From the NCBI GenBank assembly GCA_964650515.1, contig CAZYUB010000007.1:20837-84836 (forward strand): DNA of 64,000 nt, written 5' to 3'. Of this stretch, positions 5,373-15,245 are shown piece after piece. The position numbers and the translations under genes were made by a program. The DNA comes from an uncultured Planctomycetia bacterium. GTDB taxonomy: Bacteria; Omnitrophota; Gorgyraeia; Pluralincolimonadales; Pluralincolimonadaceae. Below the pieces are notes generated by a model that made no database searches, was not told the DNA's origin, and saw only the letters and a list, made by a program, of their open reading frames with translations. The stretch's first letter is position 1; each line of letters begins with the position of its first letter.

Positions 5373-5975
5373 ATGCCCGGCTACACAAGGACAATGGAGA
5401 AGCTCATAGCGGAGTTCACGAAGCTTCCCGGCATCGGGCCGAAATCAGCCGAGCGCATAGTGATGCATATCCTGAAATCCCCGCGCGAACACGCCGCGTC
5501 ACTTTCCGAATCGATAATCAAGCTCAAGGACACGATAGGTTTCTGCAAAAACTGCTTCAACCTCAGCGAAGGCGAGGTCTGCCACATCTGCTCCGACCCG
5601 CAGAGGGACAAGACGACGGTCCTCGTGGTCGAAAGCCCGAAGGATATACTCGCAATAGAGAAGACGGGCTCCTACAGGGGGCTCTACCACGTCCTGCTGG
5701 GCTCGATATCGCCCCTGGACGGCGTAGGGCCGGACGAGCTCAAGATAAAGGAGCTCCTGCGCAGGATCAAGGCCGACAAGATAAAGGAAGTGATACTGGC
5801 CACCGACGCGGATACCGAAGGCGAGACGACAGCCCTGTATTTATCGCAACTCCTTAAAAGCCAAAGCGTTAAGACAAGCCGCATAGCTTACGGCCTGCCC
5901 GTCGGCTCCCACCTCGAATACGCCGACCAGGCGACCCTTTCGAGGGCCCTCGAAGGCCGGAATCAAATTTCTTGA
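5373..5975 (+). CDS. recR: Recombination protein RecR
   Basis: HhH motif LPGIGPKSAERI, C4 zinc finger CKNCFNLSEGEVCHIC, Toprim region. No ybaB lies between dnaX and recR. Confidence 0.95.
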   Translation: MPGYTRTMEKLIAEFTKLPGIGPKSAERIVMHILKSPREHAASLSESIIKLKDTIGFCKNCFNLSEGEVCHICSDPQRDKTTVLVVESPKDILAIEKTGSYRGLYHVLLGSISPLDGVGPDELKIKELLRRIKADKIKEVILATDADTEGETTALYLSQLLKSQSVKTSRIAYGLPVGSHLEYADQATLSRALEGRNQIS

Positions 5976-12749: not shown

Positions 12750-13319
12750 ATGCGTAAAACAGCCCTATTGGCGATTTTTTTGGTAATGTCATTTGTTCCC
12801 GCTTCGGCCCGCGCCGAAGAAAAACCCTTCCAGCTCGCGGTGGTAAATCCTCTCCAGCTCGTGCCGGAGGACCAGTCGATTAAAGGCGTCGGTATTAACC
12901 TGCTCTACGGCTCCAATGAGAACTTCAGCGGCATAGACATCGGTCTCATAAACCACGTCAAGAGCCGCGCTATCGGCCTGCAGTGGGGCGCCGCGAACGT
13001 GACGGAAGGCGATCTCAGCGGCATCCAGCTCGGTTTCGTGAACTGGACGACGGGTTACATGCACGGCGTGCAGTTGGGCGGCCTGAACTTCTCGCAGGGC
13101 GACTCGCGCGGCATAGAGTGGGGCATAATGAACTACAGCAAGGACTCTTTCGGAGGCTTCCAGGGAGGTTTCTTCAACTACGCGGGCGAGATGCACGGCC
13201 TGCAGTTCGGCGTGATCAACGCGACGAAGAACCTCGACGGCCTTCAGATAGGCCTCGCGAACTACAACGGCAACAAGAAGCCGATGGAGTTCATGGTATT
13301 GGTCAACTGGTCGTTCTGA
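12750..13319 (+). CDS. Secreted protein built of about 9 tandem 15-residue repeats G-[ILVF]-x-[ILWF]-G-x-x-N-x7
   Basis: Signal peptide MRKTALLAIFLVMSFVPASARA; the repeats are visible by eye. The family is unassigned. Confidence 0.6.
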   Translation: MRKTALLAIFLVMSFVPASARAEEKPFQLAVVNPLQLVPEDQSIKGVGINLLYGSNENFSGIDIGLINHVKSRAIGLQWGAANVTEGDLSGIQLGFVNWTTGYMHGVQLGGLNFSQGDSRGIEWGIMNYSKDSFGGFQGGFFNYAGEMHGLQFGVINATKNLDGLQIGLANYNGNKKPMEFMVLVNWSF

Positions 13320-13320
13320 T

Positions 13321-13674
13321 ATGAAGCTGACGCACAACTCGCTCAAGGACCTCGTCTTAATAGCGGTTATTTTAGTCACAGTAAGCGTCCTTTCGTATTT
13401 TTTTAATTTATTCGCGTTCTTAGTGGAGCTGTTCGAGAAGAACCCGAAGGCGCTGACGTTCATAGACGAGATAATTACCGGTCTCGTGACGCTGAGCGTG
13501 TGTTTCGCCGTATTTTCGTGGCGCAGGTGGGTGGAATTGAAGAAAGAGACCGCCGAACGCATAAAACTCGAAGAGGAACTCATCGAGATAGCCACTACAA
13601 ACGTGGAAGTGGAGAGGATAATCAGCAAGCAGCTCCGCTGTGAGGTCGAACTGCGCAGGAAGACGCGCCTTTGA
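13321..13674 (+). CDS. Small membrane/coiled-coil protein, hypothetical
   Basis: TGATATG overlap with the upstream gene; 2 TM segments and a charged C-terminal helix. Confidence 0.45.
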   Translation: MKLTHNSLKDLVLIAVILVTVSVLSYFFNLFAFLVELFEKNPKALTFIDEIITGLVTLSVCFAVFSWRRWVELKKETAERIKLEEELIEIATTNVEVERIISKQLRCEVELRRKTRL

Positions 13675-13766
13675 GCAAAATAATAGTTATTGCAGTAGCC
13701 CCTAATTTGAGGTAAAATCTTTCCAATAGGGCGGCCGATCGTCGGCGCCTTAAAAAAGGAGGAAAC

Positions 13767-13937
13767 ATGGGGTACCAGGGTGGTGGCGGTGGTGGCGGAT
13801 TCGGTGGGCCGAGGGAAATGCACAAGGCGACATGCGCGGACTGCAAAAAAGAATGCGAAGTCCCGTTCAAGCCTAGGGATGACCGTCCCGTGTATTGCAA
13901 GGACTGCTTCTCGAAGCGCAAGAACGAAGGACGTTAA
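13767..13937 (+). CDS. 56-aa Gly-rich CxxC-x17-CxxC zinc-ribbon protein (not in the ORF track)
   Basis: AAGGAGG ribosome-binding site 7 nt upstream of the ATG. Product MGYQGGGGGGGFGGPREMHKATCADCKKECEVPFKPRDDRPVYCKDCFSKRKNEGR; an intrinsic terminator follows. Confidence 0.65.
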   Translation: MGYQGGGGGGGFGGPREMHKATCADCKKECEVPFKPRDDRPVYCKDCFSKRKNEGR

Positions 13938-13968
13938 CGATACGCTGTTAATCAGCGAATAATAGGAT

Positions 13969-14005
13969 CCCCCTGCAATTAAAAGTTGCAGGGGGATTTT
14001 GTTTG
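13969..14005 (+). terminator. Intrinsic terminator (CCCCCTGCAA-loop-TTGCAGGGGG + ATTTTGTTT)
   Basis: 10-bp perfect stem. It overlaps the track's TTG start at 13986, so the permease most likely starts at ATG 14022. Confidence 0.7.
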
Positions 14006-14021
14006 CGGTAAAATCAATACA

Positions 14022-15245
14022 ATGGAAAAAGGCAACGGTGTATCCCTTATCGACCGTATAACGGTCTCCCTGCTCGTGGTCGGAGGCATAATCGGCGCCG
14101 GGATACTCGCACTTCCCGTCAATACCGGCCTCGCGGGCTTCATCCCGTCACTGCTGAACCTGCTGCTCTTCGGTGCGGGCATGTTCTTTACCGCGAACGT
14201 GCTGGCGAGGGAAGCCGTGCTCGAGAAGACGGATAACTTCAACTACCCGAGCATGTACCGCAAATACCTCGGCGTGACCGGCAAGTGGGTGGCGACCGGC
14301 GCGAACCTCTTTTTGCTCTACGGACTGCTCGTCGCCTATATCACCGGCGGCTCCACGATAATATCGAACCTCTTCAATATCCCCGCGGAATACTACAGGC
14401 CGGTGACGATAGGATTCTTCTTCATCCTCGTGGGAATAATAGCGATGGGTTTGGGCGTTATCGTAAAGATAAACGCCGTATTCACGGTGCTGATGTTCAC
14501 GACGTTCATCGCGATAGTCGCGATGGGCATCCCGCACGTGAAGGCGCAGAACCTGACATACAAGGACCTGCAGTTCCTGCCGTGCACGGTGCCGATAATC
14601 GTGACCGCGTTCAATTTCCACAACGTGATACCTACCGTCTGCAAGTCGCTGAAATGGGACATCCTGCTTATCCTGAAGACGATACTCATCGGGATGGCCA
14701 TCGGCTGCGCCATGTACGCGCTGTGGATGTTCGTCGGGATAGGCGCGTTGCCGGTGGAGGGAGGGGACGCGAGCCTTATCTTTGCCTTCGATAACAACCT
14801 GCCCGCTACAATACCGCTGTCAAGGATGGTGGATAACGGGGCATTCCTCGTTATCGCGATGGTGTTTTCGCTGGTCGCGCTGAGCGCCTCGTGCATAGCC
14901 AACAGCACGGGCCTGCTGGCGTTCGTGGAAGACCTTATGTCGAATACGTTCGGCGTGCATAACAGGATGCTTTGCGTGGTCATCGCCTTTATCCCGCCGC
15001 TCATCATATCGCTGATATTCCACGGCATCTTCCTTAAGGCGCTCAATATCGTCGGCGGCTTCGGCATAATCCTGCTGTTCGGCATACTGCCGAGCGTCAT
15101 CGCGATATCGAAGACGAAGGGCTGGCGGCGGGAGGTCGCGTTCCTGATAATGCTGGTCTTCCTTGCGTCATTCGTCTTCGAGATATTCCAGGAGACGGGG
15201 CTCTTGAGGATCAGGCCCGAGGTGGAGTACTACAAGGGCAACTGA
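14022..15245 (+). CDS. Amino acid permease, aromatic/hydroxy amino acid (HAAAP, TnaB/Mtr/TyrP-like) family
   Basis: GIIGAGILALPV N-terminal motif; 11 predicted TM segments. Confidence 0.7.
   Translation: MEKGNGVSLIDRITVSLLVVGGIIGAGILALPVNTGLAGFIPSLLNLLLFGAGMFFTANVLAREAVLEKTDNFNYPSMYRKYLGVTGKWVATGANLFLLYGLLVAYITGGSTIISNLFNIPAEYYRPVTIGFFFILVGIIAMGLGVIVKINAVFTVLMFTTFIAIVAMGIPHVKAQNLTYKDLQFLPCTVPIIVTAFNFHNVIPTVCKSLKWDILLILKTILIGMAIGCAMYALWMFVGIGALPVEGGDASLIFAFDNNLPATIPLSRMVDNGAFLVIAMVFSLVALSASCIANSTGLLAFVEDLMSNTFGVHNRMLCVVIAFIPPLIISLIFHGIFLKALNIVGGFGIILLFGILPSVIAISKTKGWRREVAFLIMLVFLASFVFEIFQETGLLRIRPEVEYYKGN

Follow-up and report, generated by a model that had tools for sequence, protein, structure and literature searches.

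A small CxxC-x17-CxxC protein encoded in an Omnitrophota genome: an ordinary member of a widespread family with a proposed role in nucleic-acid binding

The closest described relatives of the protein that is the subject of this study are small proteins of the archaeon Methanosarcina mazei carrying a CxxC-x17-CxxC domain, eight of which were detected by liquid chromatography coupled to mass spectrometry "always with highest confidence" (PMC12704099). Two of these family members were purified in a procedure during which they were retained on heparin and released from the column with salt, and both bind zinc as measured using mass spectrometry with an inductively coupled plasma (ICP-MS), while "dehydro-cysteine" forms of homologues were detected by top-down proteomics (PMC12704099). 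The authors noted the same cysteine spacing in TFIIB and Brf and proposed a function in transcription merely as a starting hypothesis (PMC12704099). In our searches of the literature with PF23477, TIGR04272, IPR026363, PF13451 and peptide motifs, this was the sole study on the CxxC-x17-CxxC family. Here, we describe a bacterial member, which is encoded at positions 13767-13937 of a 64,000-nucleotide stretch of DNA from an uncultured bacterium of the phylum Omnitrophota (assembly GCA_964650515.1, contig CAZYUB010000007.1), to which we refer as the window. An earlier note, made from the sequence alone, had brought this frame forward as an unannotated zinc-ribbon gene equipped with a ribosome-binding site and its own terminator.

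Gene model and evidence for a genuine gene

The coding sequence extends on the forward strand from the ATG at position 13767 to the TAA at 13935-13937, as read from the sequence and the list of open reading frames (ORFs), and its product, MGYQGGGGGGGFGGPREMHKATCADCKKECEVPFKPRDDRPVYCKDCFSKRKNEGR, is the Gly-rich 56-residue protein with CxxC-x17-CxxC signature that had been described. It is preceded on the same strand by the Shine-Dalgarno sequence AAGGAGG (13756-13762), which is separated from the start codon by the 4-nt spacer AAAC. The earlier note had rightly recognized this motif, while the distance of 7 nt it assigned is approximated only if counted from the motif centre. The same motif and spacing are found in nearly all Omnitrophota orthologues, where GGAGG precedes the start codon by 4-5 nt. 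At the N-terminus, seven consecutive glycines followed by F-GG are present as reported. A perfect tandem repeat of 9 nt (GGTGGTGGC, 2.2 copies, 13779-13798, forward strand) encodes the Gly run G5-G11 in what appears to be a disordered Gly/aromatic tail. The elements MG(Y/F)Q and (F/Y)GG bracketing this run are kept across orthologues although the run itself varies in length. Since both the N-terminal tail and the GGAGG-N4-5-start arrangement are conserved across orthologues, the 56-residue form is the right gene model. A 39-residue model starting from the internal Met18 (MHKA...), which is used in some GenBank entries (P0272, P0278 and P0279), was rejected as truncated in view of the conserved tail, the position of the Shine-Dalgarno sequence and an orthologue that starts with GTG (locus L023, start at 5962). 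Among orthologues, the Gly run ranges from about two to seven residues, which is consistent with replication slippage altering the length of the tail.

The 56-codon frame is a genuine gene, a statement that we make with near certainty. An identical 56-residue protein is encoded on five public contigs, to which the gene is 97.7-99.4% identical at the nucleotide level, compared with 86-92% in its flanks, and the one to four nucleotide differences are all synonymous third-position changes. In comparison to 41 Omnitrophota orthologues, the differences in the 111-nt block encoding the domain are distributed as 89, 89 and 722 over codon positions 1, 2 and 3, with dN ranging from 0.03 to 0.15, a saturated dS and a dN/dS of about 0.03 where it could be computed. 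Conservation of the reading frame in relatives had been named in the earlier note as the test on which the gene should stand or fall, and we find the frame to be strongly conserved.

These observations also decide against a chance ORF in a region where one of the longer overlapping frames is the real gene. Such frames do exist and exceed the 56-residue frame in length, including the two that had been pointed out (13780-13962 on the forward strand with 60 residues and 13622-13921 on the reverse strand with 99) and a third on the reverse strand (12789-13823, 344 residues). In 39 of 42 orthologues, the domain block moreover contains no stop codon in the +1 frame (13780-13962). The product of this frame is nevertheless not conserved, because the second codon positions here are the third positions of the real frame, which change fast, and the openness of the frame is attributed to the constrained amino-acid sequence, in which codons with a central T are scarce, rather than to a second gene. 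The rival frames on the reverse strand are interrupted by stops in most orthologues (25-26 of 42), and matches to family hidden Markov models (HMMs) as well as a ribosome-binding site were found for the 56-residue frame only. Together with the concentration of substitutions in its third codon positions, this refutes the chance-ORF explanation, whose probability we regard as practically nil.

With respect to codon usage, which had been called typical, the result is mixed. The frame has the best codon score of all six (0.137, compared with -0.165 or lower in the other five), but this value corresponds only to the 5th percentile of real-gene 55-codon windows within the 64-kb window, and the G+C content at third codon positions is lower (0.655 vs 0.754). 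The low score probably results from the odd Gly/Cys/Lys composition of the protein. No paralogue was detected in the window by tblastn.

Family membership, predicted fold and zinc site

The family to which the protein belongs is defined by NCBIfam TIGR04272 (cxxc_cxxc_Mbark, "CxxC-x17-CxxC domain") and Pfam PF23477 (zf_Tbcl_2, "probable treble clef zinc finger"). Both profiles are matched over their full length (positions 1-37 of 37), with scores of 68.5 bits for a cut-off of 36 and 70.4 bits for a cut-off of 27, respectively, by residues 16-52, which are encoded at 13812-13922 on the forward strand. The cysteine motif noticed earlier, C23xxC26-x17-C44xxC47, is confirmed, and its spacing of 17 residues is found without exception in 425 of 425 domain copies from 268 family proteins. 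All four cysteines are invariant in an alignment of 43 sequences, and so are P33, F34, K35 and P36; a fifth cysteine, C30, is replaced by threonine in many relatives. The core motifs of the family, (E/T)-x-(V/I)-P-F-(K/R)-P in the segment that separates the two CxxC knuckles and R-P-V-Y ahead of the second one, are present as ECEVPFKP and RPVYC. Judged by these sequence features, the protein is almost surely a typical single-domain representative of TIGR04272/PF23477.

The gene is thus already known, and its description as unannotated applies only to the ORF track on which the earlier note was based. The identical protein is deposited in GenBank as HRZ67710.1, MBP6944257.1 and MFA5164211.1, all from metagenome-assembled genomes (MAGs) of Candidatus Omnitrophota, where it carries either the family name or the legacy name "DNA-directed RNA polymerase". 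Over more than 15 kb, the window aligns at 92-96% identity with a 192-kb Omnitrophota contig (GCA_041651455.1), of which its source is therefore a close relative. What had been found is a sound small-ORF call of an ordinary member of a named and widespread family. We retrieved 1,921 close homologues; the family amounts to 6,478 clusters at 50% identity (E <= 1e-3), and a set of species-representative genomes, with one genome per species, contains at least 597 matching stretches. In the searches for close homologues and for clusters, the matches listed are confined to the best-scoring proteins, which are either small or made of repeats only. Bacterial carriers include Omnitrophota (together with MAGs labelled Planctomycetia), Elusimicrobia and Krumholzibacteriota. 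Archaeal carriers are numerous and include DPANN, Methanosarcinales, Methanocellaceae, Bathyarchaeia and Asgard archaea, whose copies are 61-80% identical to the window protein among the matches listed. More distant copies are found in Oscillospiraceae (Firmicutes) and on three human-gut phage contigs. Neither PHROGs nor PADLOC contains a match for the 56-residue protein.

Besides the short form, we encountered relatives with other architectures. Longer Omnitrophota paralogues of 133-194 residues (L006:10776-11294, L038:21-422, L050:5764-6270 and L065:5728-6312) combine an N-terminal helix containing the motif L-x-x-K-(L/M)-D-x-L-I, a stretch rich in Arg-Gly (RG), a single CxxC-x17-CxxC domain and a basic tail rich in RG and Lys. 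A similar "LNxKLDKIL" helix follows two-finger archaeal proteins, and a loose version of this pattern matches 112 of 148 representatives. In a Krumholzibacteriota MAG, a 256-residue ORF (L072:5353-6123) contains the Shedu SduA_C/DUF4263 nuclease domain of the PD-(D/E)xK type in frame with a C-terminal zf_Tbcl_2 domain. The nuclease domain scores 28.1 bits in Pfam for a cut-off of 27 and matches SduA in PADLOC with E = 3.8e-6, and the ORF could either be a true fusion or harbour a small gene starting from an internal Met. In Pusillibacter faecalis pMM59_01 (L085:3168-4129), a protein of 92 residues combining PF13451 (zf_Tbcl) and PF23477 is encoded 39 nt downstream of a sigma-70-family gene. 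Finally, the three human-gut phage contigs that encode the domain are themselves unannotated.

To describe the fold, we used an AlphaFold2 model that was built with the 43-sequence alignment. In this model, residues 1-8 are disordered with a predicted local distance difference test (pLDDT) score below 50, whereas the domain, with pLDDT values of 82-89, is composed of two strands (19-22 and 29-32) and a helix (45-54). The first zinc knuckle, C23-A-D-C26 (13833-13844, forward strand), is located in the turn of the predicted β-hairpin and the second, C44-K-D-C47 (13896-13907, forward strand), at the N-terminal end of the predicted C-terminal helix. The modelled topology is treble clef-like. This does not agree with the zinc ribbon proposed earlier: the model places the second CxxC at the start of a helix, whereas a zinc ribbon has both knuckles on β-hairpins of a three-stranded sheet, zinc-ribbon profiles remain below their cut-offs (zinc_ribbon_6 with 14.9 bits for a cut-off of 27) and Pfam files the domain as treble clef. 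In light of the predicted fold, the label should read "treble-clef CxxC-x17-CxxC finger". A profile search of the PDB returned no significant match of known structure, with the second fingers of LIM domains as best candidates at E = 0.046 or worse. Foldseek likewise found no significant match (E >= 0.98), with the top of its list being occupied nearly exclusively by treble-clef fingers of the RING, LIM, PHD, GATA and FYVE types. C23, C26, C44 and C47 very probably constitute a Zn(Cys)4 site. The suggestion of a metal-binding protein is borne out at the level of the family by the two M. mazei homologues that bind zinc in ICP-MS (PMC12704099).

Proposed function and competing explanations

The surroundings of the gene offer no guide to its function. 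When all ORFs of 85 loci were clustered, no cluster was found in more than 10 of them, and a Pfam search of 148 immediate neighbours did not identify any family occurring more than five times. The recurrent families, such as response regulators, histidine kinases, ABC ATPases and radical SAM proteins, are generally abundant and found at variable distance and orientation. Because no neighbour is conserved, the function has to be read from the protein itself.

As best explanation, we propose that the gene encodes an abundant, stand-alone Zn(Cys)4 protein that binds nucleic acid, probably RNA, a proposal to which we attach about even confidence. In this mechanism, residues 16-52 would adopt a treble-clef fold, with a single Zn2+ bound by C23, C26, C44 and C47, while residues 1-15 would form a flexible Gly/aromatic tail and the C-terminus KRKNEGR a basic end. 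The protein would bind nucleic acid, most likely single-stranded or structured RNA, through the conserved residues K20, F34, K35, R40, Y43, K50, R51 and K52 and the Gly-rich tail, and its role would be that of a general factor of the RNA-binding or chaperone type rather than that of an operon-specific regulator. Its highly conserved surface would recognize a partner common to Bacteria and Archaea. The odds of nucleic-acid binding as such appear balanced to us, and those of RNA as the specific ligand would be somewhat less than even. Translation and zinc binding are established for homologues only.

Several features of the family have led to this proposal. Within the domain, almost all positions are conserved, among them the basic and aromatic residues listed above, which are not zinc ligands. 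The sequence outside of the domains in the 268 family proteins contains 14.7% Gly, 14.0% Lys and 10.1% Arg. Among 148 diverse representatives, 111 contain at least four RG or GR dipeptides and 96 have a tail with at least 30% Lys or Arg, and the domain occurs across the family in one to five tandem copies per protein. Indirect pointers to nucleic acid are also the retention of the M. mazei proteins on heparin (PMC12704099) and the single ORF in which the finger is joined to a Shedu-type nuclease domain. Small zinc modules that are repeated within disordered Gly/Arg-rich linkers are a hallmark of proteins binding single strands or RNA, such as CNBP and those with RanBP2-type or CCHC fingers. 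We favour a nucleic-acid binder, likely of RNA, because tandem fingers embedded in Gly/Arg-rich linkers resemble CNBP and RanBP2-finger proteins, a resemblance that reflects analogy and not homology.

Other observations weigh against this proposal. Treble-clef fingers of the LIM, RING and PHD types often serve as protein-protein modules. The Gly/Phe-rich tail of the window protein lacks the Arg residues of true RGG boxes and its net charge is only about +4. The domain fusions that are visible among the matches listed are almost all to low-complexity sequence, and high expression, as supposed for the gene, is at odds with its low codon score. There is neither an experiment nor a structure that shows nucleic-acid binding for any member of the family, and the retention of the M. 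mazei homologues on heparin was a purification step only (PMC12704099).

Among the alternatives, binding of double-stranded DNA, either as nucleoid-associated protein or as small GATA-like regulator, survives best, although we regard it as unlikely. The same retention on heparin would be compatible with a DNA ligand, and the one ORF that joins the finger to a DNA-nuclease domain points in the same direction. The Lys/Ala-rich tails of longer relatives weakly resemble the histone-H1-like HC2 family (E = 0.0024, below the cut-off). GATA fingers share the spacing of the cysteines and the treble-clef class, and GATA3 and AreA are among the non-significant Foldseek matches, but the Foldseek E-values amount to 2.5-5.8 (with 2.5 for GATA3), and no Pfam match to GATA was obtained at E values up to 1. 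In spite of identical spacing, the protein therefore does not classify as GATA-type finger, as there is no profile match. Moreover, small fingers in tandem, joined by Gly/Arg-rich linkers, are encountered more typically in proteins binding single strands or RNA, and the gene is not accompanied by an adjacent target gene or operon as is usual for small regulators. In Pfam and NCBIfam we found no match to a regulator family, a role that had been considered plausible in the earlier note.

A module for protein-protein interactions, acting as anti-sigma factor in the manner of CsfB/Gin, as LIM-like adaptor or as small subunit or inhibitor of an enzyme, seems quite improbable to us. It would be in line with the weak sequence similarity to LIM fingers and with the two-finger relative of Pusillibacter that is encoded 39 nt downstream of a sigma-70-family gene. 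Conversely, sigma factors are absent from Archaea, where members of the family abound, its loci show no conserved partner gene, and tandem repeats in RG-rich linkers would be unusual for a stoichiometric inhibitor of a protein. The protein does not qualify as an anti-sigma factor of the CsfB/Gin type, for which structural or sequence similarity would be expected together with occurrence alongside a cognate sigma factor.

It is doubtful, and in our view a poor prospect, that the protein is part of the transcription machinery by binding to RNA polymerase or by acting like the zinc modules of TFIIB and TFS. The idea draws on the legacy name "DNA-directed RNA polymerase", which the identical protein shares with some relatives, on the cysteine spacing shared with TFIIB and Brf (as discussed in PMC12704099), and on the very high conservation between Bacteria and Archaea, which would fit a universally conserved partner. 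However, TFIIB-type initiation factors are not common to both domains of life, and the zinc modules of TFIIB and RNA polymerase are zinc ribbons, whereas the present model is a treble clef. Neither an RNA polymerase subunit nor a transcription-factor family was detected in Pfam or NCBIfam at E values up to 1, and rpo genes are not linked to the gene, either in the 85 loci or among the 148 neighbours. An RNA polymerase subunit, such as Rpo12/RpoP, RpoN or omega, was rejected on the same grounds.

Least of all, we expect a zinc or redox buffer, that is a metallochaperone or thiol-switch protein: five cysteines in 56 residues and the zinc binding and "dehydro-cysteine" forms of homologues (PMC12704099) could be viewed in this way, but there is only one predicted site per domain, only the four spaced cysteines follow the motif with C30 being Thr in many relatives, and the near-invariant non-ligands E17, M18, K20, P33-F34-K35-P36, R40, P41 and Y43 imply a conserved interaction surface. 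For the association with ribosomes that the earlier note held plausible, we found no HMM match to a ribosomal-protein family in Pfam or NCBIfam and no translation gene recurring beyond chance among the 148 neighbours; what the family's sequence surroundings suggest is nucleic-acid binding in a general sense. Genes next to the small gene encode a permease, SDH_alpha and the like.

For the window itself, the import of these results is low, as the small-ORF call, which is correct, had already been made by standard pipelines. The wider point is modest but real, since it concerns a very large and extremely conserved family that extends across Archaea and a few bacterial phyla and that in M. mazei is both translated and loaded with zinc. 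What remains of interest is the function of this family. Tentatively, and going beyond the RNA-binding proposal, the family might represent in prokaryotes what the Gly/Arg-rich zinc-finger RNA binders are in eukaryotes, with abundant, multivalent proteins of RNA-binding or chaperone activity, possibly forming condensates, that are shared between Archaea and Omnitrophota, in this case probably by horizontal transfer. If true, the gene in the window would be the minimal one-finger form of a prokaryotic class of RNA binders. Two database habits deserve correction, which are the legacy name "DNA-directed RNA polymerase", carried by many entries and for which we find no support, and the truncated 39-residue models starting from the internal Met.

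Transcription unit, flanks and comparison with known systems

The gene constitutes a self-contained single-gene transcription unit with a promoter-like element, a strong ribosome-binding site, 56 codons and a terminator. The putative promoter, as read from the sequence, consists of TTGCAG (13690-13695) and TAAAAT (13713-13718) at a spacing of 17 nt on the forward strand (13690-13718) and would give rise to a 5' untranslated region (UTR) of about 40-45 nt. It scores below the threshold of a scanner for E. coli-consensus promoters; about 19 of 35 Omnitrophota orthologues have a TTGnnn-N16-18-TAnnnT element, often with TTGCAA or TTGCAG, no more than 110 nt upstream. A hairpin in the 5' UTR is not significant (z = -1.73) and not conserved in distant orthologues. 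As had been claimed, the gene is followed by its own strong intrinsic terminator (13961-14005, forward strand), with a GC-rich hairpin and a U-tract as expected for Rho-independent termination. Its core stem spans 13967-13997 within an extended hairpin at 13961-14003, and the U-rich segment UUUGUUUG is located at 13998-14005. The stem of 12-14 bp contains 7 GC pairs and starts 30 nt past the stop codon, and its minimum free energy of -36.1 kcal/mol (z = -7.25) was not reached in any of 200 shuffled sequences. In 13 of 38 orthologues, a comparable hairpin with a T-run follows the gene at a distance of no more than 110 nt. In the region 13300-14300, Rfam returned a chance match only, which is rivX on the terminator stem with 13.5 bits for a cut-off of 100.

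A second copy of the TTGCAG-N17-TAAAAT arrangement, including the 9-mer GGTAAAATC, is located at 13986-14014, where it overlaps with the 3' arm of the terminator. Transcription from this element would start at or next to the ATG at 14022 of the downstream amino-acid permease gene, which does not contain a Shine-Dalgarno sequence and whose mRNA may hence be leaderless. On the upstream side, a segment of about 352 bp (13320-13671) of the window is missing from two related contigs (L003 and L004), where an upstream gene of 189 residues abuts the promoter region of the small gene. In the window, this segment harbours an ORF of 117 residues (13321-13674, forward strand) whose N-terminal stretch appears hydrophobic and whose C-terminal half looks charged and helix-like, and at locus L001 two different genes of 170 and 63 residues are found at the same spot. 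Because its content differs between the window, L003/L004 and L001, the site just upstream of the zinc-finger gene is a variable hotspot.

In six Omnitrophota loci, a radical SAM protein (Radical_SAM and Radical_SAM_C) is encoded within about 2 kb of the small gene (L005:4891-5931, L006:6268-7542, L012, L014, L027 and L043), adjoining it in two of them, whereas no such gene is present within 8 kb on either side in the window. This proximity probably reflects lineage synteny or chance. A precursor of a ribosomally synthesized and post-translationally modified peptide, which may be small, Cys-rich and next to a radical SAM gene, was considered and rejected, as the radical SAM gene is found in six loci only and conservation of the protein extends over domains of life with no modifying enzyme in its vicinity.

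When compared with known systems, a likeness in the possible mode of action, rather than in membership, is found in the eukaryotic proteins CNBP, which has CCHC knuckles and an RGG box, and FUS and ZRANB2, whose fingers are of the RanBP2 type; these similarly contain tiny zinc modules of the Zn(Cys)4 type, either single or in tandem, within Gly/Arg-rich disordered regions. There is no sequence similarity or significant structural similarity to these proteins, whose modules are knuckles or ribbons instead of a treble clef, and, unlike in the Gly/Arg-rich eukaryotic binders, the Gly run of the window protein does not contain any Arg. Fingers of the GATA type display the same CxxC-x17-CxxC spacing and, together with LIM-type fingers, share the topology of a hairpin followed by a helix, with a weak match to the second LIM finger at E = 0.046. 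Both domains are eukaryotic and homology to them is not established, with no Pfam match at E values up to 1 and Foldseek E-values of at least 2. PF13451 (zf_Tbcl), the sister family of "probable treble clef" proteins, also comprises a small domain with two CxxC motifs and is fused directly to zf_Tbcl_2 in the 92-residue Pusillibacter protein, but it is a different sequence family that the window protein does not match and for which our searches turned up no publication.

The closest described system is the TIGR04272/PF23477 family itself, including the eight M. mazei proteins, with which the window protein shares the domain, the 17-residue spacing, the VPFKP motif, the small size and an N-terminal tail rich in Gly, Arg and Phe. 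Within this common framework, Omnitrophota orthologues contain a purer poly-Gly tail (MGYQ-Gn-FGG) and end with KRKNEGR, whereas archaeal copies have tails rich in RGG and FR and end with KH(K/R)..(F/Y). Zinc binding was measured in archaeal family proteins only; otherwise, nothing essential differs between them.

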